A stretch of 63,541 bases of DNA, counting the filler, from Schmidtea nova (Eukaryota), in assembly GCA_044892505.1 (NCBI GenBank). It is 4 parts of one record of this genome, joined end to end, with 100 filler letters (N's around TTAATTAATTAA, not from the genome) between each part and the next. Parts side by side here need not be neighbours in the genome. Positions count along the whole stretch, not along the records: positions 20,314 to 41,242 come from CM097882.1; 3 more parts are not named here. One strand, 5' to 3'. Positions within the stretch are counted from its first letter, which is position 1. Each line of letters opens with the position of its first letter. Under the pieces are notes generated by a model. That model searched no databases and had not been told where the DNA came from. It saw nothing but the letters and a program-made list of their open reading frames with translations. The position numbers were made by a program, and so were the translations under genes. Positions 12,721 through 63,541 of this stretch are shown here, in pieces.

Positions 12721-12804
12721 GTGATGAAAATAATAATATTTATAATTAATAATAATAAAATTAATTAATAAAAAATAATAATTAATAAAAATAATAAAAT
12801 ACAT

Positions 12805-13206: not shown

Positions 13207-13238
13207 TTTTTCAAATAAAATATATTAAAATAAATTGT

Positions 13239-13616
13239 TTATAACATTGATTTTAACCATGCAAGGCAATGTTCACCACAAGTGATTGTTAAAGGATGCT
13301 GATATCGAATTCTATTATACACAATAGGTTTACCAATAGTTTGAAGTTTTCGAACAAGTAAATTCGGATAATAATATCCAAAGGGATCAAATACATGTAT
13401 TCGATCTGGTTTCACATAAACTGCAATCCAATGTTCACCGCCCAACGTAGATGTCTGAGTATTTACAATGATGGCTTGATTCATTTTCAAATAAGGTATT
13501 TTATCCAGAGGAAATACTCCAATAAATTGATTTCCCAATAGTTTTTTACCTTGATGTAATACCTGAATAGAACTAATTAAAAATAAATAACTAATCAAAT
13601 AAAAATCTTACTCCAT
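13239..13616 (-). CDS. Adenain-like cysteine maturation protease, join(13616-13612,13572-13239), 112 aa
   Basis: GEHW, FDPFG, RYQ, TCGEHC catalytic motifs; a 39-nt GTAAGA..TTAG intron gives MDSIQVLHQG. Confidence 0.92.
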
Positions 13617-13687
13617 GATGATAATAATAATAATAATAATAACTTTGGTCATTTATACTGTTTAAACCAATAATGTTTGAACAGAGC

Positions 13688-14908: not shown

Positions 14909-15270
14909 TCTTCAAATATAGTTCCATGACCTTTCATTCGTTTGTTTATACGTTTTCTAATCTTTTTACGTCTTGGTCCTACCGGTTCAGGTTGCGGTTC
15001 GTTTTTGGAAAACATATTTGAAATTGACGGTATCGCCTTGGATACAGCCTCCATAGCATTCGTTTTCAATGTAGGTAAAATTTTCTGATCTTTCATTATA
15101 ACGTCTTTAGCAGTTTTCATTCCAAAACTGCCCAGTCGCTTAAGTAGTGGAAGTGCAAATCTTCCAATAGTTTTCAACCAACCTGATCCATACTGTTTAC
15201 CTATAAAATACGGTAATTCGCCACCAGTTTGGCTATTACTGTACAATGAAATTATATCGGGATTACTCAT
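14905..15270 (-). CDS. Conserved Polinton core / membrane-active protein, 121 aa
   Basis: QTGG, KQYGSG, amphipathic WLKTIGRFALPLLKRLG helix and basic tail; sits between mCP and MCP. Confidence 0.75.
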   Translation of the reverse strand: MSNPDIISLYSNSQTGGELPYFIGKQYGSGWLKTIGRFALPLLKRLGSFGMKTAKDVIMKDQKILPTLKTNAMEAVSKAIPSISNMFSKNEPQPEPVGPRRKKIRKRINKRMKGHGTIFEE

Positions 15271-16288
15271 GATGTTTTCGAAAATGTAGAGTCAAATGAG
15301 TTTTTGAATTTTTTGGAAAGTTTATTAAATTACCTCTATCATCTCGGATATTTATTTCTATATTGTTTATACAGGATGTTGAAACAGATAAATACATTGG
15401 ATTTTCAACTTGTATTTGAACAACCTCATCCTGTTCATATTTTTCAATCCATACAGATTTCAACATGGGAACTAATGAATCACCGACAATTATAGGATTG
15501 ACTATATTACTGTAAATGAACATTTGCTGATGAAGTTTAATTATTTTTGGTTTATATATTCCAACAATGAAGCTTCCGTCTTGAGCATATGTAGCTTTCG
15601 CTAATCCCAATGTTTTTACAAGGTTATTGTCAAAAGTTATTTCGCTAACATCTGCATTCAAACTGAATTTGAAGTAACTATCATCTACCAATTCCAGAGA
15701 TTTAAAAATACTTGCACAATTTAGAATAAAATATGATTGCATTTCATCCAGTTTCGATATGTATAAATTATCGGTAAATGTATGTATAAATACAGAATCA
15801 GCCTTGTACTCCATCTTTATTCTAATTTTTTCCGTTAATGGACCATCTATACCATAATATGGTAACGGTATCTTGTATGTATCTGTAGGACTTACAATAC
15901 TCTGTTTCGTTAATCCCATTCTTTTTGCCATTGCCAAAGTATCAAAAGTTATAGTGAAGGGAAAATTATCACAGGTAAAATAAATAGAATGTCTATCGCT
16001 ACTGATTTGAGCAATATCATCGGCAGGATTAGATATATCAACTTCACAAAATTGATTGTTGATAATCAAATTTTTATATTTTGTATGTATAGTTTTCTTT
16101 TTGTACCGAATTTCTGATTTACTGTAAAATGGAAATGGATTATACACAAATGTAAAGTCTAAGAGAGCGACTTCCCAAATCCCGTCCAAATACATTGGAT
16201 TTTGGAGATTGACCATGAAATTACTGGAAGTATTATCTGGATGTATATCTGGACAACTGTTGCTAGGTAGAATCATATAAAAATTCAT
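15263..16288 (-). CDS. Minor capsid protein (penton-like); likely start MNFYMILPSN at 16288
   Basis: FYMILPSNS...WEVAL, MFIYSNIV..IIVGD, IEINIRDDRG..INF...LTLHFRK. Confidence 0.9.
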   Translation of the reverse strand: MNFYMILPSNSCPDIHPDNTSSNFMVNLQNPMYLDGIWEVALLDFTFVYNPFPFYSKSEIRYKKKTIHTKYKNLIINNQFCEVDISNPADDIAQISSDRHSIYFTCDNFPFTITFDTLAMAKRMGLTKQSIVSPTDTYKIPLPYYGIDGPLTEKIRIKMEYKADSVFIHTFTDNLYISKLDEMQSYFILNCASIFKSLELVDDSYFKFSLNADVSEITFDNNLVKTLGLAKATYAQDGSFIVGIYKPKIIKLHQQMFIYSNIVNPIIVGDSLVPMLKSVWIEKYEQDEVVQIQVENPMYLSVSTSCINNIEINIRDDRGNLINFPKNSKTHLTLHFRKHHE

Positions 16289-17331
16289 TTTACTAGGTTT
16301 TTTGATGATATCCATGATGGTTCTTTATATCCGTGCCACTTTACATAGTATTGTTTATCCTTACCCACCATTTTAGATTTCAGGATTTTTTGAATTCTAA
16401 ATATTGTCGGTGGAGGAATAACTTGTAATTCTTGTTCGTAGAATTTCCCACTGATTATATTGTTATCAGAGTCACAAATAGTATACATGACAGGATTCTG
16501 CACTGTGTTGACTTTCGATATTTGATATACCTCATCACTCCAATTATTATCAAAATTTTTAATGAATGGCGATGCACTAATCTTGCTAATTCGAACATGA
16601 TCACCAATTTTATATTTTGGTTTCTTTACTTTTACTTCACTCACAATATTTTCAGTATCAACTACTTCTGCCGGTTTCCTGCCATTTATACCCCGATGAG
16701 CACTATGATTATAACTATGAATCAATTGAGGTAAAACATTAATCCAGGTTTTATTGCCTTTAAAAACAAAGTATTTTTTCAATCGATCACGCAAAGTTCG
16801 ATTAAATCTCTCGACATGAGCGGCTTTGAATTGCGAGAATACCGAATAATGATTTATTCCCTTGATAACTTCCTTGACTTTACTGTTGTAAAATTCCTTT
16901 CCTAAAAAATATTAAAAATGTATAAATTTAAATTTAAATTTACCCAAATCGGTTTGTAAATTAGTTGGCCGATCCTTTTTCATCATTGTCTTGATAGCGA
17001 TTGCCATGTCATTAGCTGATTTAGATTTTACTCCAATTGCTCGAGCAAATCTACTGTAAACATCAATACATGTTAAAATATACTTGTACCCCTTGTTAAT
17101 AGCGGAATACGGAATCATTTCCATCAAATCCATTTGCCACAAATCATTGATTCTATATGTTTTATATGCTCGAGTTGGAAACCGTTTCAACATCGGTTTG
17201 TTTAGACTGTATGCAAGTTGCCCCGATAACCAACTTTGTGTCTGTTGTTTCGACTTCTGTGCTTTTTTCCTTAGCTTTTCGACTCCACCGAAACCGGCGT
17301 CGTCTTTTGGGTTCGTCCAGATCTTCTCCAT
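16285..17331 (-). CDS. Retroviral-like DDE integrase with C-terminal chromodomain, join(17331-16944,16901-16285), 334 aa
   Basis: WQMDL, QTDLG|KEF restored by a 42-nt GT-AG intron, VERFNRT, chromodomain YYVKWHGY...SWI. Confidence 0.95.
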
Positions 17332-17386
17332 TACAACAAGAAGATTTAAAGTTTAAATTTAAATTAGGTAATGATTGACCCATTGT

Positions 17387-17932
17387 TTATGACCTTTGTC
17401 CCAATAAACCAGCACCTCCCAATAATGATAAAGCTAGTGGTAATAATGCGGCAATAAATCCTTCTTGTTGTTTATATATTATTTTTCGCATAAGTTTTCG
17501 ATTTTTTGTTTTTACTAGCGACAACAATGGTTTCTTATGCTTGTTCAAAACACGTCGATTAGATGGACTGAGATGCATTTTACCTCGTACTACTTTAATT
17601 AAAATAGTGAGTAAATCATCGATAACGTAATTAGGAAACGATTGAAGAATACCCATTCTTCTAGCGGATGGGGCTTTAAGCAATGCATTAAAAAACGGAA
17701 AACTCCGATGATGTACTTGTTTAGTATTTGATTTCAAATTAATTGGAATTTGATTTTGTTTGGGAAAATTATCCATAATTAGTTTTTTCGATGGTGTATA
17801 ACTTGTTTTTGAAACTGATTTTAAAACGGATTTCTTTGTCGATTTCTTTCTTCGACCTGCTTTCTTACCTATTTTCATTGATTTTCGAGCTTTTATCAAT
17901 CGTTCAAACTTTACTCGAGATTTCATTAACAT
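17387..17932 (-). CDS. Basic core protein with an adenovirus pX-like hydrophobic C-terminus
   Basis: Lys/Arg-rich N-terminus; ends QQEGFIAALLPLALSLLGGAG (compare adenoviral pX GG.LP.LIP). Confidence 0.7.
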   Translation of the reverse strand: MLMKSRVKFERLIKARKSMKIGKKAGRRKKSTKKSVLKSVSKTSYTPSKKLIMDNFPKQNQIPINLKSNTKQVHHRSFPFFNALLKAPSARRMGILQSFPNYVIDDLLTILIKVVRGKMHLSPSNRRVLNKHKKPLLSLVKTKNRKLMRKIIYKQQEGFIAALLPLALSLLGGAGLLGQRS

Positions 17933-17952
17933 TATTATTACTGTAAATCAAT

Positions 17953-18576
17953 TTAACTTTGTTTATAAACCATGGCTCCTTCCTTGTTAAAAATATCAGT
18001 TCTAACCCTTAAATCATCACTGCATTGTTGAGTAAAATCCAAGAAAATATATCCATGAGGAGATTTTGTAGCATCCTGAAAGGCTTCAATCAAAAAGTTA
18101 CGATTTGAAGGATAAGCTTGTCTTGCCAGAAAATCAATAACTGTTGCATCTCTAGGATTTTTAAAAACAACAAGATATTGAACATTTAAATTACGAGTTC
18201 GATGACTACCGCCCTGATGAAATAAATTCTGAGTTATAAAAATAACAGTAACACCTTTATGTCTACTGATTTTCGTAAATAAATTATTAAAATCCTTTTC
18301 TTTATTTGCTTCTTGATACAAGTCGTCAATGATAATCACATCACCTTGTTTTAATCTAGATGACCAGTTTTTATCGAAACCTTTTATGATTGTCATTTTT
18401 ATTTTACAAAACTGATCTTGTGTCATTCCACTTTCGTCGTCAGCACCCCTATGCCAATAAATATTATTAAATTTTGACTTGAATAATTTCGATTGCAATA
18501 ATTTACAAACAAATAAAGTTTTTCCACTCCCGCTCGGACCAACAATTTGAAACACTGCATCATTTCTTAATTCCAT
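17953..18576 (-). CDS. FtsK/A32-like genome packaging ATPase
   Basis: Walker A GPSGSGKT, Walker B IIIDDL, RHKGVTVIFITQN. Confidence 0.95.
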   Translation of the reverse strand: MELRNDAVFQIVGPSGSGKTLFVCKLLQSKLFKSKFNNIYWHRGADDESGMTQDQFCKIKMTIIKGFDKNWSSRLKQGDVIIIDDLYQEANKEKDFNNLFTKISRHKGVTVIFITQNLFHQGGSHRTRNLNVQYLVVFKNPRDATVIDFLARQAYPSNRNFLIEAFQDATKSPHGYIFLDFTQQCSDDLRVRTDIFNKEGAMVYKQS

Positions 18577-18664
18577 ATTTAAAAATTATATTTTCTTAAT
18601 ATTATTGTTTATATTTGTTTTAAATACCTGTTCTCAAAGTAATCATTTAAAAATATTTTCAGTA

Positions 18665-19132
18665 ATGATTAGAAACATTAATTACAAAGGTAAGACAGAT
18701 GTATCACATATGAAATTTCCAAATGGAAAACCCCAGCAAATTGTTGATCGAAGTGGGAAATACCCAATAATATACTTTAAATCAGGAAGATATAGAATAA
18801 TGGGATGCAGGGAATTTATTAGTGACGAACAAGTTGAGTTTTACGATTTAAAGATACAATCGATAACTGTAACTGCAGATTTAGGATTTATTTGTAATTT
18901 GAATGAATTATCGAAATTAATACCGTGTGTTTACGAGCCAGAATTATTTCCAGCTTTGAGATATATCAAATATAATCCCATGTGTGTAAATATATTTGCA
19001 AGTGGGAAATTAGTCATATTAGGATTAAAAAACAAAGACTATAGTACTATAGTTGATGATATTATTAACGATATAAAATCAATTATAGAAGATAAAGCCT
19101 TTGTTGATTTCATACTAACATGTGACTCATGA
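18665..19132 (+). CDS. TATA-binding-protein (TBP)-like protein, 155 aa
   Basis: KIQSITVTADLG...YEPELFPALRY...VNIFASGKLVILGLK aligns to the TBP C-terminal repeat; degenerate first repeat RNINYKG...YFKSGRYRIMGCR. Confidence 0.85.
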   Translation: MIRNINYKGKTDVSHMKFPNGKPQQIVDRSGKYPIIYFKSGRYRIMGCREFISDEQVEFYDLKIQSITVTADLGFICNLNELSKLIPCVYEPELFPALRYIKYNPMCVNIFASGKLVILGLKNKDYSTIVDDIINDIKSIIEDKAFVDFILTCDS

Positions 19133-31767: not shown

Positions 31768-33804
31768 CTAGTTATCCTTTGCGAATAGGTTTTGAGCTGC
31801 TCTTTTGCGAATATGTGCTTGCTCATTCTTGATTCGATCTTCCACTATATCTGGTCTATAGCTGACCACCAATGTTTCGCGTGTTTCGACTTCCTTATAT
31901 ACCAAAGACGAAATCACGTATGATTTTCCGTTGGCCTCCAATACGCCATAGTAAGGGAAGTTTGAAACTGATGATTGGTGTACCGGTTTCCCGTCGTATT
32001 CTTTTATCCGAGGTACCCAATTTCTCTCTGGTCGCTGCCAAAAACTAGGGTCTTCGTTATCCAAATCCTGGGGTGTCTTTGCTGAATTCCCCGTTCCAAC
32101 GAAATCCCCTTCTCTTATAATGATAGGTTCGCCCTTAACCTCAGGAATCTGTTCCATATCGGGTGGAATGAATGCTGTTTCGATTAAATCTTTGTCTTCC
32201 GTCGAGATGGGATTTAGTACTTTCTTTTTGATCTTTAGATCTTGTAACCTTACAACAGGTTCTTGACTTTTCTTTGGGGACGACTTCTCCACTGAAGTCA
32301 GTTTTTGAAAAGTCTTAGTAACTTTTTCCAAGAGCTTGTTCTCTTTCTTTGGTGGATTTTCTGGCACGATCTTTGTAATTGTACGGCTGTCTCCGTGTAA
32401 AGTTAAACGCATCTCTGTTTGCTCCTCACCCTCGCTTTCGCAGGTGGCATAATCGTCTTCATCCGCTAATGATATAGCTGGAGGAGATAGAGATTCTTCC
32501 TCAACTATCTTTTGTAATTTGGTTGATAATGGCTGTTCCTGGGGTAAGCTCTCAATAGCTTTCCTTTTACTCGTTTCTTGTGGCTGTATTGTATGAACCA
32601 TTTTGACTTCTGATGTAATCGTCCCACTACGATTACCTGGGGTAATGTCATCTACCCAAACTTCTCTCAGTTTAAGGTAAATATTACGTGTCGTTTCCAC
32701 GTCATTTTCCGTTTTCAGATCTGAACGGTTTAGTTCTTCCTTTTCGAGAATTGACTTTGATAAATACGCGAGTCGATAATGTCCGTTACATTTCTTTAGT
32801 TCTCTCGCTTCCAGGCATTTTGCTGCTCCTAGTTCCCTAATGCCCAAAACTCGTTGAGGGTGTAACTGGACTGCTTCCAAGAAATCGTTGACTTGGAGAC
32901 CTATTAGGATTTTCCCATCACATAATTTTCTAATACGGTCTGCGCAATCCTCTCCGTCAAATTGTCCGATGATTTCTTTTTCGGTCATACCATGCGCGTG
33001 CGATTGGTAATGTTTGACCTGGTTTCTGGGTGTAACCACCGTGTTTAATATTAAATCACCACAGTAGTTTGCTATCGAAACAGCCACCAAGGCTGGCTTT
33101 AAATAATCTCGCAAAGTTGCGTAATGCGCTGCAACAAATATTGACAATCTATCTTCTTGATTGGGGTGCAGATTCATCCGAACAAAGGATTTGAATGACT
33201 TGAGATCGTTCTCATTCACATTATAGGTCCAGGCAGGTTCATTTTTCCACAATGATTGCACTGCCTTGCTGGGTTCCAAAATCTCTAATACCACAATAGT
33301 ATTATATCCTTCACATTGGATGGAGATATTCTTTTCTCTGCCATCTCCGTTACTAATTTCTAGAGTTGATTCTGGTTGAAGTAGGATGGGTCCTGTGGCT
33401 CCTGCCATGAAGATTGTAAAGGGTTTATTGATCGCGTGAATCAGGAGATGGTGAGTAAATGTTGATCTGTTAAATTCCGCCATGTGTTCAGTCAACCGGG
33501 TGTTCTCACGGCTGGTGATTGTGACTATGCACATTTGTCTCTTAGGTGATCCAAGAAACTTAAAATTGTTCGGGATGCCGGTGCAGTGCCCGTAATACCA
33601 ATAGCGACGACCTTTCCGTGCTTCTGCGGATATCGCTTTTTCGATGTTTCGATAAATCAGTTTTTCCTTCTGTATTGTTTGCACATCGATAGTGCTGTAA
33701 CGCTGCTTGTATTGTGACACTTGATGCTTCATATCTGAAAGAAAAATAATTAACGTTAATATCAGATATACTGATATGCCAATATTGGCTAAAAAGAAAT
33801 GCAT
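31768..33804 (-). CDS. Retrotransposon ORF3 containing a degenerate REXO4/ISG20-like DEDD exonuclease domain; probably spliced (acceptor at 33735) or starting at Met 33732
   Basis: VAVSIANYCGDLILNTVVTP..VKHYQSHAHGM...GKILIG..NDF..IREL..ENDV parallels the REX4 motif order; ExoI acidic residues absent. Confidence 0.65.
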   Translation of the reverse strand: MHFFLANIGISVYLILTLIIFLSDMKHQVSQYKQRYSTIDVQTIQKEKLIYRNIEKAISAEARKGRRYWYYGHCTGIPNNFKFLGSPKRQMCIVTITSRENTRLTEHMAEFNRSTFTHHLLIHAINKPFTIFMAGATGPILLQPESTLEISNGDGREKNISIQCEGYNTIVVLEILEPSKAVQSLWKNEPAWTYNVNENDLKSFKSFVRMNLHPNQEDRLSIFVAAHYATLRDYLKPALVAVSIANYCGDLILNTVVTPRNQVKHYQSHAHGMTEKEIIGQFDGEDCADRIRKLCDGKILIGLQVNDFLEAVQLHPQRVLGIRELGAAKCLEARELKKCNGHYRLAYLSKSILEKEELNRSDLKTENDVETTRNIYLKLREVWVDDITPGNRSGTITSEVKMVHTIQPQETSKRKAIESLPQEQPLSTKLQKIVEEESLSPPAISLADEDDYATCESEGEEQTEMRLTLHGDSRTITKIVPENPPKKENKLLEKVTKTFQKLTSVEKSSPKKSQEPVVRLQDLKIKKKVLNPISTEDKDLIETAFIPPDMEQIPEVKGEPIIIREGDFVGTGNSAKTPQDLDNEDPSFWQRPERNWVPRIKEYDGKPVHQSSVSNFPYYGVLEANGKSYVISSLVYKEVETRETLVVSYRPDIVEDRIKNEQAHIRKRAAQNLFAKDN

Positions 33805-33918
33805 AAATCTCGATTTACGGGATCTACTTATGCTGTAAGTTAATGCTACTCGGAGCTCAACAAGATTATAGATTTTAATATATATATAAATACAAATATG
33901 TGATTTTATCTGTAATTG

Positions 33919-36900
33919 TCATAATCTCGTCATCATAATCCCATCAACCGACTCAATAGCCTGGCTGAAGAATAATTTCATCCAAACTCCCATTGCTATC
34001 AATGTAGTGATCATAGCTAATACGGCTGACGTAATAATCCATACCCCAACGGGTAATTTTCCCAAGTGAGTAATGGGGTTTACTTCATTAACTTCACACT
34101 GACAACTTTTAATATAGCTTTCTGTTGATACTGTTGGTTTTACCATCTTCAATCCTTTCAATCTCTGCCATATTGCAGGATGAATGACGTAACTATCTTT
34201 CCGTGTCAAGGATGTAACTGATTTCGTTGTCGTCAATGATTGTGGTAATTTCAAAGAGATTACTTCATAAAATACCTCATTCCATTCATCAACTCCGGGC
34301 TTTTGTTTATTATTCATATAAGTGATATGAGCTTCCCACTCCACTGAGCTGTTCCACTTGAGATTTTGTTTCTCAATATCTTCATTTAGCCATAATTCTT
34401 GTACTATTTCCTTGTCGGAATGGATTTCTATCTTTACCCTATCCACTCCTTGTTTTGGTTGGCTGAAGGTAATCATACCTTGTTGGATATTTATTCTAAC
34501 TTTCCTTTTGAAATCTGCTGTCTTCAGCTTCCATTGTGACTTTGAAAAGTCTGACCATCGTCCAAATATAAAATGTTGAACAAGTATATCTAATAAATAT
34601 TCCTTTTCTGCTCGCAAGTCCTTTATGACTTTCACTCTTGTGTTTGAATCCAATGTAAAATGGAAGCAACGTCGCTCGCAAAACGAGAACTTGAATTTGG
34701 TATCATTTTCAGCTAATGATATTATCCTAAATTCCTGAAAAGATCTTCTAAATGCGAGATCTTGAATTTGTACCGCTGTTGGAACAAATGTCTTTACACA
34801 GGATATAAGGCAACTTATTATTACCAAAAACGTAACTGATTTTGGCACGCCTCTTGATCGTAATGGATATCTGTCTGAGACTGGTTCTGACCCTTTATCC
34901 TCCTTTTTCTTAATCGGATCTTTCTCCGTGACCGCAACTTTCTTGCATCTGTTAGCATGTACCATTATTGGTTCCGCTTTTCTATTTGCTACTAATTGCA
35001 AGATTAAATTCGTGTCTGTGGTTCTCAAGACCTCATACGGTCCTTTGAAGTTTCTCATTAATTTTGGTGATAGGCCCTTTTTGTTATAATGGCTTTCCAA
35101 CATCACCTTGTCTCCCACTAACATTCCATGTCCTTTGGCTTTCTTATCATGATAATCTTTAGATGCTTCCTGACTGAATTTTATACTAAGACCTGCTTTT
35201 GTCCATGCTTCTTGCATTCTTTCTCTCATTTCCATGAGGTAATCCTCTTGGTCTAGATACTGTGTTGCTTTTGGGAAGAACAACAAATCTATAGGCATTT
35301 TACTTTGCCTTAAATACATGAGATAGAACGGGGTTTGTCCCGTACCCTCATGAACAGCATTTCTGTATGCGAATAGGCATGATGGAATATGTATATCCCA
35401 ATCCGTTTGCCCTGAATTTACGTATGATGCTAGCATATTTGCGAGAGTTCCGTTAAATCTCTCTACCAATCCGTCTGTTTGTGGATGGTATGGAGAGGTA
35501 TTCAGTTTTAAAATGTCGAAATAATCATTTATTCCTTTTAGCAGATTACTCATGAAATCTGCTCCTCTATCTGTAAGTAGTTTTGTAGGTACTCCATACC
35601 TAAAAACAATTTGCTCTACGAAAATCCTGGCTATCGTATCTGCCTTGTGATTCGGTATCGGATAAGCCTCCGGCCATTTTGTTAGGTAATCGCAAAATAC
35701 CAATATGTATTTGTTACCACTATTTGATTCTTTGAATGGCCCTAAAACATCCATTGCCGTCATTTCCATCGGTGTGGATGGTACTGGCATTGGTTTCATT
35801 GGTACATGCGGTTTCTTCCCCGTATTTCTTCTGGTGATACAGATCTTACATGTCTGACACCATTCCTGTACGTCTTGTTTGATTGTCGGCCAGAAATATT
35901 TCTGCTTCAACCTTGACAATGTTTTCCTGGAAGACAAATGCCCTCCCAGTGCTCCATCATGATATTGTAACATCAAGGCTTCCCGATATTTCTTAGGGAC
36001 CATTATGACATTATCCCTTACGTCTACATATTTGACTAATCCTTCTTCTAGAATAAATTTGTCTCGATTTTTCTCCCAATATTTATTAAATTCCGTCGGT
36101 ATGAACTTTGCTTCTAAAGCCTGTCTGATTTGGTTTATCTCTTCATCCGATTGTTGTGCTGCCATTAAATCCGCGAGTCTATTTGCTTCTCTTGTAAGTG
36201 CGAAGATTGTTCCTTCTAATCTTCCTTCTTTGATATCTTCTGCTTCATCACCCTGGTCCATTCGAGAAAATGCATCTGCATTCCCATTTAGATGTCCTTT
36301 TCGGTAATGTATTTCGATGTCATATGGCTGCAAGATCAATGCCCATCTAACCAATTTTGATGTATCCATAGTATGCTTTGTTAACCACTGTAATGGTCTA
36401 TGATCCGTATACACAATGATCTTTCGACCCCATAAATATGTCCTGAATTGGTGTATAGCATACACAATTGCTAATGCTTCTAATTCGATAACTGCGTAAT
36501 TCTTTTCATGTGGTTTTAGTCCTCTGCTAGCATACGCTATGGCATATTCGTCTCCTAGATCATCTCTTTGACCTAACACAGCACCAATACCCCGAGTGCT
36601 GGCGTCCGTCATGACCAAAAATTGTTTCTCAAAATCTGGAAACCGTAATATAGGAGGTTCCACGAGCATCCTCTTTAACATATCAAATGCTTCCTGTTGC
36701 TCTTTTCCCCATACAAATTTGACATTTTTGCCCTCTAATTGTGTTAAAGGAAATGCTATTGCCGAAAAATTCCTGATGAACTTCCTGTAATATCCCACTA
36801 AGCCCAAAAACCCTTTAATATGTTTGACTGTCTTTGGCTCTGGAAAATTCTTTGCTTTCTCAACATTTGCTGGATCTGGTTTTACTCCATCCTTCGAGAT

Positions 36901-39900
36901 AATGTGACCGACATAGACTACTTCTGATTCGGCCCATTTACATTTTGATGGTTTTACCTTGAGATTTGCATTAATTAACCTTTTGAATACGTCCTCTAAA
37001 TGTTCTAAATGTTTTTCCAAATCTGGAGAAAATACTATGATATCATCTATGTATACCATTGCATGATGAACATCCATTAACATTAGATTCATGGCTCTTT
37101 GAAACGTTGCCGGCGCTCCTGTGAGACCAAATGGCATTACTGTATATTCGAAGTGTCCAAGGCTTGTAGAAAAAGCCGTGATTGGTATTGTCTCCTCTTT
37201 TAACTTGATTTGGTAAAATCCCTTCTGCGCATCCATCACTGAGAAATATTTTGAATTTCTCATCCGTCCGTAGATGTAATCCAGTAATGGTAATGGGTGA
37301 CTATCCTTGCAAGTTGCTTCGTTTACCATTCGATAGTCGTTGCATAGTCGTACTGTTCCATCCTTTTTAGCCACTACTATCATTGGTGACTGGTATGGTG
37401 ATTTACTATGCCTGATGATGTTATGTTTTAACATCAGTTTTACCTGCTTATCGACAGGTTCTTCCAAGCTAAACGGAATTCGATACGGTCTCAGTTTTAT
37501 TGGTTTCGTGTTGTTAAGAACAATTTCATGTTCCAACAAGTTCGTCTTTCCCAGATCATATTCGTGCTTAGCGAATACTTGATCATATTTTCTTAACAAC
37601 ATGTTTACTTGAATATTCTCTCTTCGTGAAAGAGCTTTACTATTTGCCGTTGGCGCATCATAGTACTCGATGTCTGGTTCTCTATTCTCTGCCTTCACTG
37701 TCAGGACAGATCCCCCAATCGGTAATTGATCCGACTTTGATACTCTCCCTACTCTTGTATCTGGGTACAATTTTAATGGTTTTATATCTAAATTGGCTAC
37801 CCGAATTGGTATTCTGCCATTTTCAACTTTACCAACGCTATGCGTAATTGGTAGATTATATTTTGCTGAGAACCTTTCATCTGGTTCGAATACAACTTCT
37901 CCTTCCCACTGTTCGCTAGTGGACACGAAACATACTGTTTCTGCTCTGGGTGGTATTATCATCGTATGGTCGATGAAAACTGTATCATCATTATAAACTT
38001 TTCTTTTCTTACCGATTGATCTAACTAACAATCTGGTAGCACAGTCAAATACAACTCCTTTTAATCTTCTTAAAAGATCCATTCCTAGTAGACATTCTAC
38101 TGGACAAGTTCTCATGACTATAATATCATGACGAAATTCTTGGTCACATAGCTTGATGTTACAAGCTAGAGTACCAATAATATTCAATGATGTGCCTGTA
38201 GCACCTGTTAGCGAAACTCTTGAGGTTTCCATTGATTCCAATTCTTTTTGATTTAATAATGTTGCCTCTATGATGGTGCCGTCTGCTCCTGAATCTATCA
38301 CTGCATTAACTGTGTGTCTGTTTATTTTTATCTTTATCATGGGTTTCTTATCCAAGTTCACCCCATTTGCCATCAAAATAGTAGCATGTGTTATCCCGAT
38401 GGTATTTGCTCTGAATTTCTCTGCTTCATCTTGTTCGGTATCACTCAATTTTGGATTATATTCCTTGAATTTAGCTTTTATTGCTTCTAACGACTCGATA
38501 GGATACAGTTTCCCTTCATTTTCTAACGATAATGATATGCTTTTACCTGTTTCTCGAGCCTCTTTGTCGATAATTTGTTGATGTTTAGAAATGTACATTT
38601 TGTTTCTTGGTATGGTTAAAGCATAACTTGACTTGCCCTCTCCTGATGTCTTTTGAAACTCTGGCGATTCCCCCTTTGGCGCTGTTGGTAAGCTTCTAAG
38701 ATATGGCAATTGCATATATCTTGGGCTTCTTTTCAATCTAGGTGATGCTGTATTGATTGCAAATTTCTGGTCTGCACTATCGTATTCATCTTCTGAAATC
38801 ATACCTTTGTCGAAAATCTGTTTTGTCGTTTCGTAAGGTGGTTGATAATCCCGATATTTCATTTTCCTTAATTGATGATTCGGTTTTTTATTGTAGTTTC
38901 TTTTTCGACTTCTACTTTGCCTCTGAACTGTATTAAGAGAGTCTCCATTACCTCCTCCTTCCGAATTGTTATCGTCCCGATAACTTGTATTACCCTCCAT
39001 TTCGATTCCAATAATCTCGTGTTTAACCAAGCTTCTCTGTTTGATTGTCTTTATTTCTTTACGATGATGTTTAAACAATGCAAATTCCGCACACATAGGA
39101 CATAATCCTAGTATCAACTTCCAAGACCATCCACCGATTTTGAATATACTGTATGTGGAAATTAATTGTGTTATTATTAACTTTAGAATTACGAATATTG
39201 CATATATTCCTGAGCAGCCTGCCACGAAAATACCAAAATTGGTAAACCTTCCCCATATTTTCATCATCACATTTTTAGCTGCTTCTTTATAATGATCTGG
39301 ACCAAATAATAAATTGTAATCTGGTCTCATTTCGTTTGCTTGGTAAATTGTTCTTATGATTTCTGTGATACCTCTTTCTCTTACTTGAGGGAATAGCAAT
39401 GTCTGTCTTGCCTCCTCAATGTCTGCTGGAGTGTAAATTCCTCCTTGTGATAATTCATCGAGTGATTTAAATTCCATGTTTTCCTCGAGTTTCGTGACTT
39501 CCAATGTTTCCACCTTTCTATTAGATGGTTTTCTGTCAGGTAATGAGATCCATCTATCATTTACCTTGTATAACGGTGATATTGCTGGATTGCAAATTGA
39601 AGGTTGAGGCTTTTGTTTTTCATCCAAAAGTCTCCTTGTTACTGGCATTACAAATCGTATTTTGTTTTGATATGATACTGGTAATTCTAGAGTACATTCG
39701 TTATACCGTGTTAATTGTACCTCTATGGGTTGACATTGATAGCTGTATATAGCTTCCCCCATAATTCTGCCAAACATTCCATCTTCTAGCAACATAGGTG
39801 TCACTAGATCCGGATTCACGATTGATATTGCTAGTCGATTTCGAACTATTTCGCGATTTAGTTTGCAATCATTGAGTATTACTTCCTGATACATTTCCTG

Positions 39901-41242
39901 CATTTGTCCTTGCAGATCATGATATAAATAATCTATTTTATTATTTATATAGTTCGTGATTTTGATATCCTGGCTGTGAATATTCTTGGCTTTTTGGATG
40001 AATGTTTTTGACAAATATAATCCTTTATAGTTGGTCTCATACACCACTTTTCCGCATTTTGTCTTCTTATCTTTTCTGACAAATCTGATTGCATCTTTCT
40101 TATCTTCTGATACTAATACTAGAGGTGTGATTTCTTCACTAATATCCTCTTTTTGCTGTTTGTTGATCCTTTTCAACGTCTTTTCTTTATCCCAAATTCT
40201 TTCTCTTTTGGGTAAATCTCGATACTTTGTCCCGTTCAACTTATGGAAGTTAATTTTCTTCAGTAATGACAATTCGCAATGGTCGAGTATTTGATCGTAT
40301 AATAATGTAATGACCCCTGTTCTACAGCTTCCAAATTTCGCAAGGCACTGAGGGTGTGCCATTAATCTACCTGATAATACATCGAACGTCCCTTCGTATT
40401 CTCTTAATTCGATTGAATAGTCCTCAATATCTACGACAAAACTTACCAACTCCGATCCGCGAGTTTTCTTTCTTCCCGTACAGGTACCATCTGATCCGAT
40501 TGATCCTCCTCGTGTAATGGTTACTCCCAGTGTTTTTCCTACTTCCGCGGCGATGGTTACCTCGTTATCGATTCTTAAAGTACCCTTTCGAAAGGCGTCT
40601 AAACAATCTTCTGGCAATATGTTGACAGGTCTAGGTATTAGAGTGGCTGATAGAAAAGCCGTATAGCTGTGTGAACCACAATAATATTCAAATGTCGCTC
40701 TTTGGACTCTACATTCTCTTATCTTAGTTCTGAAGAATTCACTTTCTTGATAGACATAGTATTCGACCTTTTCTCCTGTTTGGACTTTCTCTGGATATGC
40801 CTCTTTGCACTCAATTGCATCTACGAGCGAATATATCCGAGCCAACTTTGGATCACTGCAATCAAACGCTGTCATTGTGTTTGTCTGTTTCATTATCCCC
40901 ATCATTACTAAAAACATTAATATCATATTCGTCATATTCCCCATTCCTCCATTTCCGAGGTGGTTGTTATTCATAGCCTCTTCCACAAATTCATATCGTG
41001 GTTTATGTTTCTCCTCTTCCCAGAAGTTATTTTCACTCATCCACGTTCCGAGATAATGCTCCGTTATCTCCGTGATCTGGTCTATTTCTCGATTAATAAG
41101 TTTCTTCTCATTGCCTGCGCGGGCTAAGGCATCTTGAATCAACATAGATAATGCTGTCACTATTTTTCCTTTAGATAACCCATCTTGTATGAGTGTCTCT
41201 AACATACTCTGTATCTCGTTTTGAGGTACCCCTTTAGGTAAT
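33919..41242 (-). CDS. Single Ty3/gypsy polyprotein: class III (gB/chuvirus-like) Env - PR - RT - RNase H - IN - extra membrane domain; open at the 5' contig edge
   Basis: Signal peptide then AFDC...YYCGSHSY, TM FGIFVAG...; PR IDSGA; RT YIDD; RH TDAS/ELE/TDH; IN HHCC, D-D-E, GPY; no stop in more than 2428 codons. Confidence 0.93.
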
Positions 41243-41342
41243 NNNNNNNNNNNNNNNNNNNNNNNNNNNNNNNNNNNNNNNNNNNNTTAATTAATTAANN
41301 NNNNNNNNNNNNNNNNNNNNNNNNNNNNNNNNNNNNNNNNNN
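41243..41342. other. Artificial contig linker
   Basis: N44-TTAATTAATTAA-N44. Confidence 0.95.
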
Positions 41343-42669: not shown

Positions 42670-43530
42670 CCCCGGCCTACCAAAAGTCTCCAGTCAGGCA
42701 GTTATTTACATTTTGCAGTTTATAATGAACAGCAATGGGAACAAACGTCACAAACACACACGAATACTGAATGTCTGTAGAGCTGAGAGAGTTAGTACTT
42801 CGTTATATTACCTTTCATCTGGATAACAAGACGCACTCGTTTAGGCATTGTATTGACCACTATTGCCAGGAAATCAGGGGAGATGTGTGACCATTCTTCG
42901 TGCAGATGCGTTTCCTGTTCGGAGGCGTTACAGGCAATGGGAATCCTTTTGCGAACACGTCTACTAAGGACGTCCCACAGAAACTCAATAGGATTCAGAT
43001 CAGGGCTTTGTGGAACCCAATCCAAAACTATTATGATGTGCTGCAGAAAGAATTCCTTCATAATGTGCGAAGTATGGATTGGTGCAATATCCTGTTGGAA
43101 AATGAGCCCCTCAATTTCTGGGAGCTAATAGTTCCTTTGGGATGGCCAGCCAATGCAGCAGTTTCACTCTGACTTTTTCCACAAAGGTAACATCCATAAG
43201 TGATGCCTTTGTGAAAGTCTGTAGGCTTTCTCTGAGTAGCCATATTCTAAGAAAATGACAATCCTTCATTAGCATGACTCACTGTTATCCCTGTTGTGTG
43301 TCTGGTGTGAGTAGTCATATTCTAAGAAAGTGACAATCCTTCATTAACACGACTCACTGTTGTGTGTCTGGTGTGATTAGTCATATCCTGTGTTTGATTG
43401 CAGGTGTGTAAATGTGCGCATGCAGCATGTTTAAGGTGTTGGTAACCTTTGCTCCCATTGCTGTTCATATTTGCACTGCAGTCGTTCATTAGAAATAACT
43501 GCCTGGCTGGAGACTTTTGGTAGGCCGGGG
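42670..43530 (-). mobile_element. Internally deleted Tc1 element
   Basis: TIRs of about 38 bp with one mismatch, TA TSD; N-terminus MATQRKPTDFHKG joined to C-terminus LDWVPQSPDLNPIEFLW. Confidence 0.9.
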
Positions 43531-44273: not shown

Positions 44274-45553
44274 TTGGGTTGTTCGGAAAGTCATTTAGTT
44301 TTTTTCCCAGCAGAGGACCAATTGTATTTTCATTATAATCATTATAATCAATTGTATAATCATTATATATTTTGACAACTGATATAGTAAGTTTTGTTTG
44401 TTAAAAAATTTGTTTGATTCTTTGCAATAGTTTTTTTTGGCGCCCCATGAAAGATGGAAATTTGAAAGCAGCATTTTCGGCATATTTTACTCTTTTACTA
44501 TTGCAAAGGTAAAAATGAAGTTTAACCAAGGCGAGAACCATGTGATGTGTATGGAGAATATGTATTGACCGAACGACAATGCCAAAATTCTTTTGCAAAT
44601 TTCGTTCCGGCAATTTCAAAGTTGAAGACGCACCACGTTCTAGAAGGCCCGCTGAATCTGATGAAGACAAAATAAAGGCAATAATAAATGCAAACCGCCG
44701 AATAACAACTCGTGAGATTGCTGAGAGGTTAAATTTGTCGAATTTGACTGTTCATGAACACGTGAAACGTCTTGGTTTAATTTCAAAGCTTGACATATGG
44801 GTTCCACATGTTCTTACAGAACGAAATTTGCTTCGTCGCATCAGCAACTGTGATTTGCTTCTCAAACGACAAAAAAAATCCATTTTTGAAGCGAATCATT
44901 ACTGGCGACGAGAAATGGGTTGTTTACAAAAATATTAAGGGCAAGAGATTATGGAGTAAAAAAGGATGAACCAGCCCAATCCCCTTCGAAGGCCGATATT
45001 CACTAAAAAAGATTATGCTATCTGTTTGGTGGGATTTTAAGGGGATCGTTTTTATTGAGCTTCTACCGGGTAATACCACGATAATTTTGAAGTGAACTGT
45101 TATCAACTGGATAAACTAAATGATTCGCTCAAACAGAAAAGGCCAGAATTGATGAATAGAAAAAGTAGAGTGTTCCACCACGATAATGCGAGACCTCATT
45201 ACAAATTTGGTAACTCGCCAAAAGCTTTTACAGCTTGAATGGGATGTACTACCACACATACTATATTCTCCAGATTTGGCACCTTCGGATTGTTACTTGT
45301 TCCAGTCTCTGCAAATCATTTTGGACGGGAAGACCTTCACTTCAAATCAAGACGTCAAATATCAGTTGGACCAGTTTTTTGCCAGCAAAAATCAGATGTT
45401 TTATGAGCGTGGAATCAATCTTCTGCCCGAAAGATGGCAAAAGGTATTGGACCAAAATGGAGAATATATAATTTAATAAAATGTTTATAAACTCTAAAAA
45501 AAATCGTGTTTTATTTTCACCAAAAAAACGAAATGACCTTCCGAACAACCTGA
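44274..45553 (+). mobile_element. Full-length (1280 bp) mariner with a frameshifted DD34D transposase
   Basis: TIR ttgggttgttcggaaagtcattt / aaatgaccttccgaacaacctga, TA TSD; WVPHVLT, TGDEKW, HHDNARPH, YSPDLAPSD. Confidence 0.92.
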
Positions 45554-46557: not shown

Positions 46558-49440
46558 CATGGGTGGGCAAGTGCGGCCTTAAAGGCCGCATGCGGCCTAA
46601 AAAAAAAATTTGCGGCCTTCAGAACGATTAGAAATGTATAATGTTTGCGGCCTTCAAATCCTTTATAAGGGATTTCGTATATTATCGTTAATTAAAATCG
46701 TTCATTAAACTTTTATCAGTTGGTCATCTCATTCATTTCAAAGTTATCACCATTCAATAGTAGCCTACACGCCTTCAAAGACAATATATTCTTTGCTATC
46801 ATAACGAATTGGTCTCTGTAACACTCATAAGAAATTGTGGGTATAAATTACATTACATTCGTGAGCAAGAAGAATTAGTTGTTTGCCATATAAAGAGTCA
46901 TTGACAAAAGCAGTTGGGCTAGTCAATAAGGAAAGGCAATACCCGTACACACATATACTAGTGTGGTTAAATATCTATACGTGGGTGTGAAAACAGGAGA
47001 GTGTGAAGTATTGTTATTCGTTGTCAGATTGCGTGGTAGCTTATCTATTATTGGTTAACACTCAGTCGCGTGATAACAGCTGCCATTTTTCATTTCAAAT
47101 CATTATTTGTTGAGTGAAGCTGCCGAGCATACGTAAGTTCTATTGAGACGTATTTTCTTGTCTATTGGGATTACAGCGTTCTATCATAATGACAGGCAGA
47201 TCATGCTTGCTATTGACTTCTCATGTACTCTTATTCAGTATAATCAATTGATTAACAAATAATTAATTGAGTATTGACAATTTGTTATATTCCTTCTTTG
47301 CAGCTCATCATCCTTTGTTCTTTCCATGCCGAAACCACCTCTATGTAAGAAATCCAGAACATTGGAGAGTGAGAATCGACAATTCAGTGAAGAATGGAAG
47401 TTGGATTTCTACATGTCTAACAATGACAGCACAATGATGTGTCTGAGATGCAAACAACAAATAAAAACATTGAAACGATCTAATGCGAAACAACATTATG
47501 AGAGCTGCAAGTCGTATATGAAGTACATGACACTAGAAGGTGAGGCAGTGGTTGCTATTGTATGGGCATAAATAACTTGTAAATGTTTTATATTTTTCCG
47601 CACAAAGGTGAAGCAAGGAAGCAAGCCTACGATGCACTGAATAGTAATCATGCAAAAGAAGCGGGATTGTTTTCCACGTTCAAGTCAAGTGGTCACAATC
47701 CAGCGGTGGAGGCAACTTACCGTGTTGCATTCCAACTTGGTGCTGCAGGGAAGCCTTATTCTGATGTGGAATTATTTAAAACATGTCTTCTGGAAGTGGT
47801 GCAGTGCCTTGAACCATTTCAAATTCAAAAGTACAAGGAATTGCCTTTGTCTCGACGGACGATAGTAAGACGTCAAGAAGAGCTAGCAGTTGATATTAGA
47901 CGACAACTTGATGAGGTCTGTAAACAACCAGATGTACTGTTCTCTATGGCACTCGACGAATCGTGTGATGCTTCCGACACCTCACAATTACTTATCTATA
48001 TCCGTGCTACAACGTCGTCATTCCAAGTCCATGAAGAATTATTGGCTGTGATTAGTATGAAGTCAACCACACGTGCACCTGACATTCTTGCCCAATTCAA
48101 TAAAGTATGCGAAGAAAAACAATTGGACCTGGCCAAGCTGGTTTCCGTGTGCACTGATGGCGCACCCGCTATGATTGGCAGCACTGGAGGATTTGTCGCA
48201 CTTCTGACAAAGCAGCTACGATCTCAATGGCCACATTTACCAACCTTAATGTCACTACATTGCATCATTCATCAAGAGGCGCTGTGTGCAAAGTCTGTAA
48301 CATTAGACAATATTATGGAGGAAACAATCTCTATTGTGAATTTCATACGTTCCCGTGCACTTAACCACAGACAATTCCGGCAGCTACTTGTGGATGATAA
48401 TTCTACTGATAAGGAAGATGTTCTCTACTATTCGAATGTTCGTTGGTTATCCAAGGGAGCTGTCATCAAGAGAGTCTATGAACTGCAAAACAATATAAAG
48501 GAATTCTACTCTTCGAAAGGCTTGGAATGTAAGTTGAATAATCCTTCCTTCTGTCAGAAGCTTGCGTTCCTTGCAGATCTTCTGGATCATTTGAATGGCT
48601 TGAACACTCAACTTCAAGGTAAAGGCCAAAATGTTTGTGACCTGTGGCGATTCATCAAAGTGTTCCTGCGTAAATTGAAACTCTTCCATGCAAAGTTTAC
48701 CCAGAAACAACTGACAGAACACTTTCCCCTACTTCGGGATTTCGCCATCGCCCATCCCACAGAAGAGGTGACCTACGAGGAGTTCACTGATGTTTTCAGT
48801 ACACTAATTCAAGAGTTTGAAATGCGATTTCATGACTTTCGAAACCATGAAAATGACTTGCGCCTCGTGTCTGAGCCGCACTTGTTACAGCCAGAAACAG
48901 TGTCTGAGATGTATCAAATGGAGATTTTGGAACTGTGTGAGGATGCAAATTCTCGAAGCGTTCTGTCTCGTGCACCTGTCGATTTGGTTTCATTCTGGCA
49001 TGGTGCCTTTCAGTATCCAAATCTACGCAATCATGCTCGCCGAATTTTGACCTGTTTTGGCAGTACATATATATGTGAAAGCACATTTTCACACATGAAT
49101 TACATTAAAAATTGTCATCGTATTGCTCTCACTGACGGTCATTTAGAGGACCAGGTGCTCTTAAAGACTACCAGCTTCGTACCATGTTATTATGCTCTCT
49201 CCACTAACATACAAGCTCACAAGAGCCATTAATGTACATTTTCAGTATCCATTTGGTCTGTTTTCTCTCCTATCACAGAATAATTCTGACTTGTTTTGAT
49301 GTGTTATTGTAGGCAGTTGTTGAATTTCCTTGCGATATGAATAACAAACTAAAAAGTACATTATACAATTGTTTTGCGGCCTTGGAAGTTTTTAATGAAC
49401 GTAAATTGGCCTTCAGGTGTAAAAAGTTTGCCCACCCCTG
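46558..49440 (+). mobile_element. Autonomous-looking Buster-type hAT transposon
   Basis: TIR catgggtgggcaa / ttgcccacccctg; perfect TSD ctcTAtac at 46550-46557 and 49441-49448. Confidence 0.95.
47326..49232 (+). CDS. hAT transposase (SPIN/GTF2IRD2-like), join(47326-47539,47608-49232), 612 aa
   Basis: BED-like CLRC, ALDES, CTDGAPAM, HCIIH, VRWLS, YICESTFS; in-frame 68-nt intron. Confidence 0.9.
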
Positions 49441-61146: not shown

Positions 61147-63541
61147 TCATTGCAAATAGTTATGCTCCGGCTCTTCGTANNNNNNNNNNNNNNNNNNNNN
61201 NNNNNNNNNNNNNNNNNNNNNNNNNNNNNNNNNNNNNNNNNNNNNNNNNNNNNNNNNNNNNNNNNNNNNNNNNNNNNNNNNNNNNNNNNNNNNNNNNNNN
61301 NNNNNNNNTAAAATACTGCTACCCCATCTATAATGGCCGTATGTCAGGCTTTTAATTTTGCCTACCCAATTGCGCTTATCGTCCCTATAGCTTAAAGCCC
61401 TCTTATTATTTTTAACACTAAAAAGCTGGTGATTTTTAGATGTTATTCTAAGCTGGGGACCGTATAGATCTTATTATTTATATAACAATCCAAATATGAC
61501 TGATGTTTTAGTCTAGTATCCTTCATGCCAATCCTCTTCGCCCTCATACTCGCCTCATCACCAATTAAGCTATAGCATTTCGGTCGAAGAAACACCCACT
61601 CTTTATACATTATCCCTTTATTCTTGTCTTTGAACTTGCCAAAGACAGAATCACGGCTTCTGCTGTATAAAGAATGCATTGGGTCATAATTAAAAGTGTC
61701 CAGCAAGCGATCATTAACCATAGCCGGTAAAAGAAGGTCAAGACTACAGTTTTTGACGTTGCTATTTCTAAATCCACTTTTATATTGTAGCCATAATGAA
61801 GTTCATCTAAATCTACCGATGTACACTGCAAAATTATTTGATTTAATAAGTGGCCATCTGTGACCCATTGAAAATTTGAACAAGGTAAGGGTTGGCTTAA
61901 GGCCCACCCATACAAATTATTAATGTCGATGTAAAGCAATGCTGTATCCGGGCTTGTTTTTACATAATGTTTATTAATAAAGATTAGACCGCCACGGATA
62001 CCGCCCTCGAAAAAGCTGTATATCTCTATATCGGTGAGGAACTCAATTGGAGATTCTAAAGTCATTAATGCGGAACTCCAAGATAAACTTGGAATACCGA
62101 GGAAATTTAGAGGTTCTAGTCGGTTATGTGCAATTGATTTTGATCTAAATTGCTGGAAAAAGTCGGCAAGTATAAAAACATCGAGTTTCAAATAAACCAT
62201 CATGTAATCAAAAAGTGAATTACATGATGTTTCAACCCAAATTCGTTGTGCGATATCGTATTCGGCTTGTGTGACATCTTTCCAGATAGGTGGAAGAGAT
62301 AAAGTCGAATGTAAAACTTCTAAGGAAGTTGCAGCATCATAGGGAAAAATACCCTTGGCTGAAATTATTGTGCCTTGAAATTCTGATTCGGTGAGTGGCA
62401 AGGAAGTAAGAGTTTTGACAGCATTATTTAAAGACTCGCTGATGAATTGGTAAGAGTCTATGAATTTAACAGTTAAAGAGTCAATCTAGCAAAAAGACTA
62501 AGAAATTTCTCACTGGTTAAGGGAATACAACTGATATTCCATTTTCTATATTTTGATAAGCCATATTTTAGAATATGATGTAGATCATACCCTTTTAAAT
62601 TATGAAAGATAACAGGAAGGGTATGTCTAATCTGTCTCACTTTATTACATTCTGAGCAAGTTGCACCAAGAAAAAGACCGGAGAAATGGTCATCGTCCCT
62701 AACGGGTCTACATCAAAGTTTTTTGCACAAATAACAAATTGTGCTGTTAATAAATTCAATTTGTTGTTCATCAGTAATTATCATCTTTTTTTGATAATTT
62801 TTAAAAAAGTATGGTGTTACTATGTGACGACTGATAAGTTCAATTTCATTAAGAAATTGTTCTACACAATCAAGGCCGACAAAAGATTTATAGATTTTTT
62901 GGCCAGAAAGGTTGTTGATCAATAGTAAACCGGCAGAAATAGGCAAATGTTTTTGGAAATACCTAGTGTCAGCAGGTAAGATTGCCTCAAAGTCGGCATA
63001 AATAACAAAAGGAGGAGTCACTGTTTTACGCCAATCAGTAAATTTGAGCATTTTATTTTTTGATAATGTGTACAAAGTTGTACCAGTTTGATTTTTATCG
63101 CAAAGACCCCTATGTCTATTGAAAGCCTTCTCATTCCAAAACCCATTTAAGAATCTCGGACCCCATTTACTGCAAATCCTTACAGGGGTTATCGAACTAT
63201 TCTGACAATTCAAAAATCTATTTAAGTCGAAAATGGTAATGTAATGAAAATTGTTTTTTCTCAAGCAATAACAAATTTATTGGAGTGGCACCTACAACTT
63301 TTGACTTGTAAATTAAGTCGATAAATGGTGTTTCAGAAAAGTATCGTCATTGTCATCACTTACAACTATTAAGGCATTTTCATCATAAGACATCAGCGTC
63401 CATATCAACATTATATAATTACTAAAAAGATGATTAAATAATAATTAAATAATAATAATAAAATTACAATTCGATCGTCCCATTGACAAAAATGCATTCA
63501 TCCTTAATGATGATGCGACATGTTCAGCATTTTTGTTGTTC
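61147..63541 (-). pseudogene. polB: Second, diverged Polinton pPolB with frameshifts, stops and a deletion removing motifs B and C
   Basis: VIYADFEA, YLKLDV, YIDINNLYGWAL, FLRPKCYS; EIA jumps directly to ..MVNDRLLDT; the stop at 61147 is inferred across an N run. Confidence 0.9.

Follow-up and report, generated by a model that had tools for sequence, protein, structure and literature searches.

The window analysed here is a 63,541-nucleotide (nt) stretch of DNA from Schmidtea nova (assembly GCA_044892505.1), which consists of four parts of one record joined by filler letters; positions 20,314 to 41,242 come from CM097882.1. The minus strand of this part carries a putative long terminal repeat (LTR) retrotransposon, in which an envelope glycoprotein (Env) is encoded ahead of the enzymes of Pol, namely protease (PR), reverse transcriptase (RT), RNase H (RH), and integrase (IN), in a single reading frame. 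This frame runs without a stop from 41241 to 33919, between a gap of N letters (41243-41342) and a TGA codon at 33919-33921, and it is followed by a second open reading frame (ORF2) and a probable 3′ LTR. The features, numbered in amino acids (aa) of the frame where appropriate, are as follows.

33919..41241, minus strand: polyprotein frame, 2440 aa, stop-free; its 5′ end lies in the assembly gap, with gag expected upstream as in relatives
41011..41229, minus strand: C-terminal half of a Bcl-2-like domain (BH1-BH2-like, aa 5-77), from PDB, Pfam, and profile matches; the N-terminal half lies in the gap
40876..40932, minus strand: internal signal peptide 1 (about aa 104-122), with predicted cleavage 2 residues before AFDC, from the signal-peptidase rule
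39241..40875, minus strand: Env ectodomain, class III, related to chuvirus/Monjiviricetes G and herpes glycoprotein B (gB), 14 Cys, from Pfam and profile matches
39142..39240, minus strand: Env membrane anchor (TM1, aa 668-700), from hydrophobicity
38353..39141, minus strand: segment of weak hydrophobicity that ends in Cys-Pro, then a basic tail and a low-complexity linker up to the protease
38056..38352, minus strand: aspartic protease (DSGA), from Pfam
36898..37371, minus strand: reverse transcriptase core (YIDD), from Pfam and a PDB match
36322..36711, minus strand: RNase H, from Pfam
34972..36000, minus strand: integrase (H2C2, core, and C-terminal part; lower end approximate), from Pfam and a PDB match
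34789..34851, minus strand: predicted internal signal peptide 2, behind the integrase, an arrangement common to relatives
34066..34788, minus strand: ectodomain of a second type I membrane protein, about 240 aa, from sequence features; its fibronectin-III-like character is a lead only
33964..34065, minus strand: second membrane anchor (TM2), from hydrophobicity, then a short tail
31768..33918, minus strand: ORF2, 716 codons from stop to stop, first Met at 33804, hydrophobic at aa 38-65, conserved in relatives
32650..33093, minus strand: ISG20/REX4-like DEDDh exonuclease domain within ORF2, from an ISG20L2 match, with degenerate catalytic motifs
31475..31484, minus strand: polypurine tract
30711..31472, minus strand: probable 3′ LTR, with a TG start directly after the purine tract; the lower end is uncertain (loose contig ends lie at 30712, and part of the LTR matches 26655-26799 at 79%)

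The remaining two frames over the polyprotein DNA contain 217 and 162 stops, and given the base composition, the probability of 2440 stop-free codons by chance is about 1e-82. A Pfam scan along the frame gave, in this order, Monjiviricetes_fusion (PF24664; E = 5e-90), protease (aa 964-1062), RT (aa 1291-1448), RNase H (aa 1511-1640), H2C2 (aa 1748-1806), and the integrase core (aa 1823-1920). Thus, the order env and then PR-RT-RH-IN in one uninterrupted frame, which a previous sequence-only reading had proposed, was confirmed, and Pol retains intact motifs. The internal signal peptide, Cys-rich ectodomain, membrane anchor, and basic tail of that reading were also recovered: AFDC lies at aa 125 (40869), YYCGSHSY at aa 186 (40686), and the anchor at aa 668-700. 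Its ectodomain size of about 580 aa needs to be corrected to about 545 aa with 14 Cys. The interval that it gave, 38250..41242, reaches from the Bcl-2-like piece through env and the linker into the beginning of the protease, while the rest of Pol lies outside. Its description was sound from env to integrase, and omitted the Bcl-2-like domain, the second membrane protein, the exonuclease-like ORF, and the membrane segments that flank Pol on both sides. The frame extends about 310 aa beyond the integrase, and additional hydrophobic segments are found there at aa 2131-2159 and 2393-2426.

The assignment of Env to the class III glycoproteins related to gB and chuvirus G was borne out by the Pfam match and by a profile of 102 env sequences, which, when compared with the PDB, found herpes gB in 31 of 33 matches, all of them weak (E = 0.035-2). 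Eleven Cys are nearly invariant across the 102 sequences. The -1/-3 rule for signal peptidase is satisfied at one fixed position, 2 residues before the conserved xY/FDC motif and behind a hydrophobic core, in 19 of the 21 proteins whose env begins internally; at other offsets, it is satisfied in 3-8 of the 21, and the background is 0.11. This pattern supports the earlier proposal of a membrane-threaded polyprotein. The simplest topology would have four membrane crossings, with Pol in the cytosol and tethered at both ends, and Env and Pol would be made in equimolar amounts.

Regarding the class of the element, the best solved relative of its Pol is the Ty3-G Gag-Pol (E = 3e-117), followed by a foamy-virus-type Pr125Pol (E = 2e-35) and the enzymes of human immunodeficiency virus (HIV; about 1e-8 to 1e-11), in a set of solved structures that holds few BEL/Pao or copia enzymes. 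Judged from these similarities, Pol is of the Ty3/gypsy (Metaviridae) type, closer to Ty3 than to the retroviral enzymes. In the Pfam scan, the window element showed neither an env behind the integrase nor domains such as DUF5641, by which BEL/Pao elements are recognized; DUF5641 presumably sits behind the BEL/Pao integrase, and in P0068, the one Pao-type protein seen, G lies behind a DUF5641 domain. The purine tract at 31475-31484, followed by TG at 31472, marks the likely start of the 3′ LTR. No LTR pair was found inside the five fetched loci longer than 5 kb. The partial match at 26655-26799 is cut by an N gap and is likely a piece of a related LTR.

The structure is shared by relatives, which are labelled P00xx for proteins and L0xx for the 13 loci fetched from metagenome contigs. 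A search among long proteins with the first 760 residues gave five matches, three of which have env and the whole Pol in one chain, two of these also with a gag signature in front. Among cluster representatives, a search gave 1451 matches at E = 0.001, of which 150 were listed; among the 19 longer ones scanned for domains, env is followed by protease or more of Pol in eight, and through the integrase in three. In four of the 13 fetched loci, a single frame of 2693-3703 residues stays open from upstream of env through the integrase. In all, nine relatives carry env through integrase in one frame (P0002, P0004, P0005, P0009, P0019, P0020, L002, L005, and L011; L001 encodes the cluster of P0002, and the two were counted once), and gag was found in the same frame ahead of env in P0002, P0003, P0005, L005, and L011. 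For 11 elements, the FastTree trees of env and RT-RNase H have their main groupings in common and differ only in weakly resolved inner branches, and in a quick tree, 14 polyprotein-type envs form one clade separate from 16 other G proteins (SH-aLRT 100). P0013 and P0033, apparently chimeras produced by gene prediction or deletion, were excluded as intact elements; the pre-env segment of P0013 was still used in alignments. The bacterial label of P0004 is, by inference, probably a binning error. Locus scans with a single env, of viral contigs with the alignment, and of prokaryote genomes with P0004 gave no matches. As for additional protease-like sequences, P0003, P0008, P0009, P0010, L002, and L005 have 2-5 DTG/DSG motifs per polyprotein, and one such motif sits after the integrase in P0005 and P0009.

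Contigs from three runs of one study covered 30 of 30 bins of the element with a summed depth of several hundred or more, which is consistent with many copies. No single contig among those listed spans the whole element. The coding differences come from the 40 best-supported among 211 rows, restricted to the 37 that lie at or above 31709; 27 of the 35 listed are synonymous, as compared with 26% expected, and none creates a stop.

The segment that precedes env was compared with known families. When the first 124 residues of the window frame were compared with the PDB (E up to 10), 29 of 30 matches were Bcl-2 or Bcl-xL, over BH1-BH2, with a best E of 0.41; the Pfam Bcl-2 family (PF00452) matched at E = 0.05 and 14.6 bits, and P0011 reached 20.1 bits. 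The same stretch is present in six relatives. Each of these seven segments was recovered by a profile of the other six among 154 proteins (E = 5.7e-4 to 1e-16), that of the window at E = 1e-14. Pfam Bcl-2 was matched by five of the seven (best E = 2.5e-5), and any other family by at most one. A seven-sequence profile based solely on the elements found Bcl-xL in the PDB at E = 5.5e-6, with Bcl-2 family members in 59 of the 60 rows shown, and it located the domain directly upstream of env in the new loci L007, L002, L004, and L005 (E = 2.5e-21 to 1e-5), so that the domain recurs in at least 10 relatives. With a profile of the four new loci alone, the first natural matches were fowlpox FPV039 (E = 0.011) and Bcl-2 (E = 0.014); with an 11-sequence profile, Bcl-xL was found at E = 1.1e-4. 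An AlphaFold model of the domain of one relative, made from the 7-sequence alignment, is of low confidence (pLDDT 58), and Foldseek gave Bcl-2/Bcl-xL chains in all rows shown, at E ≥ 0.05, a TM score of about 0.3, and an rmsd of about 13. The ESM Atlas gave no usable match for the domain, and a search of longer proteins with its alignment returned only three of its own members. In all seven proteins, a hydrophobic segment (signal peptide 1) stands behind the domain. In cellular Bcl-2 proteins, a helical domain in the cytosol carries a membrane anchor at the C-terminus, and signal peptide 1, from its position, may also serve as the C-terminal tail anchor of the Bcl-2-like domain.

A ubiquitin-like domain was also noticed between gag and the Bcl-2-like domain, in P0002, P0024, and L007, and by eye in P0003, P0004, P0014, L002, and L005 (Pfam ubiquitin E = 2.5e-4 in L007 and 0.03 in P0024; UBX 0.006 in P0002). 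It is preceded by a short helical domain and is doubled in some relatives.

Behind the integrase, a hydrophobic segment ends in a fitting cleavage site and is followed by about 240 residues and a final anchor. This layout of signal, ectodomain, and anchor is also seen in P0002, P0004, P0005, P0009, L002, L005, and L011, and the signal segment in P0019. Language-model features of the ectodomain gave fibronectin-III/cytokine-receptor matches of 0.87-0.91, with a recognition of 1959, which lies below the reliable level of 2300, and a profile of seven units found gp130 at E = 0.052. The fibronectin-III identity is thus only a lead. The units of L002 and L005 recover each other, and a profile built without the window's own units failed to recover them. 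The domain had no Pfam match, and a PDB search gave only colicin nucleases at E values that are not meaningful (0.05 and 0.14). L002 has an extra signal peptide-ectodomain-anchor cassette at about 4380-5100, between duplicated protease-like domains, that is akin to the post-integrase units of L002 and L005.

ORF2 matches ISG20L2 (E = 5.7e-5). Its relatives lie downstream of the polyprotein in L001, L002, and L005 (E = 1e-19 to 5e-25); none of similar length was found in the protein search, and they were recovered later in the fetched loci. The acidic residues and the His of the DEDDh catalytic site are present in L002 and L005, which also match Pfam RNase_T (1.5e-5 and 6e-4, respectively), and are degenerate in the window and L001, which do not; to judge by these residues, the exonuclease domain of the window copy is apparently inactive. 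A contig of depth 483 crosses the polyprotein stop unchanged. Because of this stop and because ORF2 lies in a different frame in L002, ORF2 is probably a separate gene. On the same two observations, a mutation of this copy was rejected as the origin of the stop before ORF2; readthrough as a general mechanism was also rejected, since the window and L001 are the only cases in which ORF2 keeps the frame of the polyprotein and is separated from it by a single stop. The exonuclease-like module changes position among the relatives: it stands between gag and env in P0014 (aa 665-755; profile E = 2.2e-4), and a DEDD-like stretch is seen by eye in the N-terminal region of P0019, before env.

From the frame, its domain order and conservation, the signal-peptide pattern, and the likeness to Bcl-2 and ISG20L2, we infer a topology, cleavages, a mode of budding, and accessory functions as follows. 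The element would be a Ty3/gypsy LTR retrotransposon of the GAG-ENV-POL type with a gB-type env. It would have multiplied recently and be translated as one polyprotein that passes through the membrane of the endoplasmic reticulum four times and is processed by signal peptidase and by the element's own protease. The cytosolic N-terminal part would comprise Gag, a ubiquitin-like domain (in relatives), and the Bcl-2-like domain, and would end in signal peptide 1. There, signal peptidase would free the luminal class III fusogen, which TM1 would keep anchored, and the cytosolic PR-RT-RH-IN block would hang between TM1 and signal peptide 2 until the protease excises Pol. Signal peptide 2 would direct a second small glycoprotein to the lumen, where TM2 would anchor it. 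Such a four-pass layout would bring the capsid, the enzymes, and the fusogen together on one membrane, ready for budding. Once cleaved, the Bcl-2-like domain would remain in the cytosol with a C-terminal membrane anchor, as in cellular Bcl-2 proteins, and as a captured host gene it might, in the cell that produces the element, damp cell death or stress signalling. ORF2 would be translated separately, as an accessory protein whose exonuclease fold could, in this copy, at most bind nucleic acid. Taken as a whole, this reading, a Ty3/gypsy GAG-ENV-POL element of the gB type with a four-pass polyprotein and Bcl-2-like and other accessory modules, is in our judgment probable.

Several observations weigh against it. 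Gag, the 5′ LTR, and the primer site are not visible within the window, in which the 5′ end falls in the N gap, and the copies in 9 of the 13 fetched loci are either broken or incomplete. Behind TM1 there is a second hydrophobic segment, a weak one with a mean hydropathy of 1.0-1.7 in 13 proteins; the four-crossing topology assumes that it does not cross, and a different topology would result if it did. As to the pre-env domain, the initial seven segments were chosen by eye for a BH2-like motif, and the prospective finding in the four new loci is therefore the better test. No segment reaches the Pfam Bcl-2 curated cut-off of 31.4 bits, so that the domain is filed here as Bcl-2-like and not as a member of the Bcl-2 family, and 2 of the 7 first segments and 3 of the 4 new ones do not match this family. 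Five designed helical repeats outrank FPV039 and Bcl-2 in the search with the four-locus profile, and a designed repeat, made of four weak matches, tops the 11-sequence search above Bcl-xL. The NWGR signature of BH1 is not conserved (the window retains only the Gly and a basic residue, and the relatives vary), and a wide structural search with the low-confidence model gave no Bcl-2 chain in the top 50 (best Z 6.4). Finally, among the 21 proteins in which a long region precedes env, 14 lack the domain, which is thus dispensable or a later gain. The sub-threshold scores, the designed repeats that score equally well or better in two profile searches, the patchy presence, and the loss of NWGR would all fit an element of the same kind and topology whose pre-env domain is an unrelated helical spacer or matrix-like adaptor, convergent on BH1-BH2, or a Bcl-2 relic without a role in cell death. 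This alternative is a real possibility, but single sequences and element-only profiles repeatedly return the Bcl-2 family in the same BH1-BH2 register, ending at the W..GGW motif, and the first natural match of the independent four-locus set is a viral Bcl-2. From these sequence comparisons, the domain quite probably descends from Bcl-2, while a role in cell-death control is a more doubtful proposition, which we advance tentatively.

The frame may also be real without governing expression: Env could be made mainly from spliced or subgenomic RNA that starts at the Met-rich signal peptide, or gag and pol could be joined by skipping env, and then Gag, Env, and Pol would not be equimolar. The window has several Met codons at the start of signal peptide 1, and assembly requires far more Gag than Pol. 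In addition, one low-depth joint seen in two runs skips 2960 nt inside the element; it removes pol and not env, and may represent a deleted copy. Since the signal-start Met is absent in several relatives and the frame is open across both junctions in nine diverged ones, we consider such expression unlikely. That a chance event, or an assembly error, which the sequence-only reading had named among the outcomes fatal to its claim, fused a chuvirus-derived endogenous glycoprotein gene to an env-less gypsy pol could be suspected from the gapped, repeat-rich assembly and from the lack of a listed contig that spans the whole element. However, the order and the frame from env through integrase are common to the nine relatives, several of them with gag, the env and RT trees largely agree, and the polyprotein-type envs form one clade. 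The element is therefore not an assembly chimera; this explanation is already largely refuted and is exceedingly improbable.

Invertebrate retrotransposons that carry an env are commonly depicted as consisting of three genes, whereas the lineage described here would use a membrane-threaded polyprotein with several host-derived accessory modules. If the Bcl-2-like domain is what it appears to be, such elements would manipulate the survival of the cells that produce them, each Env made would leave behind a membrane-bound death regulator, and the domain is small and directly testable. One may speculate, with considerable reservation, that this enveloped Ty3/gypsy lineage is a complex virus in all but name, with a captured Bcl-2 that controls host apoptosis, a tail anchor reused as the signal peptide of the fusogen, a second surface glycoprotein for possible attachment or as a decoy, and a mobile ISG20-like nuclease module.

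The rest of the window is AT-rich and full of transposons, with no clear host gene seen. A degenerate Polinton/Maverick-like element (6757-18585, minus strand) contains a protein-primed DNA polymerase B with an endonuclease VII domain, an adenovirus-type protease, an A32-like ATPase, a double jelly-roll-like capsid (weak), and an integrase with a chromodomain. Head to head with its ATPase lies an ORF with a TATA-binding-protein domain (18551-19132, plus strand; Pfam TBP, E = 2e-13), which is possibly a Polinton-borne TBP-like gene. A second Polinton-type polymerase fragment (61610-63276, minus strand) has two 300-nt pieces that are 73-81% identical to the first. The other elements are an intact-looking hAT-type transposase ORF of 549 aa (47583-49232, plus strand), mariner-like fragments (44546-45476, plus strand; by eye, with Pfam HTH matches only), and a Tc1-like DDE fragment (42792-43124, minus strand).

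Among known systems, the viral Bcl-2 homologues of large DNA viruses, such as fowlpox FPV039, resemble the window domain in being compact, divergent, and carried by a mobile genome. They are free-standing genes, and we know of them only from large DNA viruses, whereas the window domain lies inside a retroelement polyprotein and would share its anchor with the env signal peptide. Among the papers listed, our literature search found no retrotransposon encoding Bcl-2 by title or the beginning of the abstract, in a collection that leaves out most subscription papers, so that absence from print is not established. Nematode elements treated by Sacco et al. in 2022 reportedly have a continuous gag-env-pro-pol ORF, and a single env-pol frame has therefore probably been published too. 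GAG-ENV-POL elements with a gB-type env, not monophyletic, have been described in Nematoda, Bryozoa, and Platyhelminthes (Chary and Hayashi; PMC13524379), so that the env-before-pol order stands as an observation on this DNA and not as a novelty. Like these HSV/gB-type (herpes simplex virus-type) errantiviruses, the window element has a Ty3/gypsy pol and a gB-type env between gag and pol; it adds the Bcl-2-like domain, the second membrane protein, and the exonuclease-like ORF2. The main text of that paper does not contain the terms polyprotein, fused, in frame, Bcl-2, exonuclease, ubiquitin, fibronectin, or accessory, while its figures or supplements may show ORF continuity or extra domains. 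For such published elements, whose biogenesis is unexplained, the conserved signal-peptide sites found here make it testable. Atlas virus, a nematode belpaovirus, also has a single stop-free polyprotein (Gag-Pol-Env), but its Env comes last and is of class II (phlebovirus-like) (PMC9094657). Anakin elements are likewise LTR retrotransposons with a chuvirus-like glycoprotein, but they belong to BEL/Pao and not to Ty3/gypsy (PMC7642597). The Juno/Vesta LTR elements of bdelloid rotifers share an extra exonuclease-fold ORF downstream of pol (ORF3); theirs is RNase D-like (DEDDy) and stands in elements that are mostly without env, whereas the window ORF2 is ISG20/REX4-like (DEDDh), stands beside a gB-type env, and looks inactive (PMC5408684). 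The env-before-pol order is thus known, and the Bcl-2-like domain, the second membrane protein, and the exonuclease-like ORF2 are the new parts.

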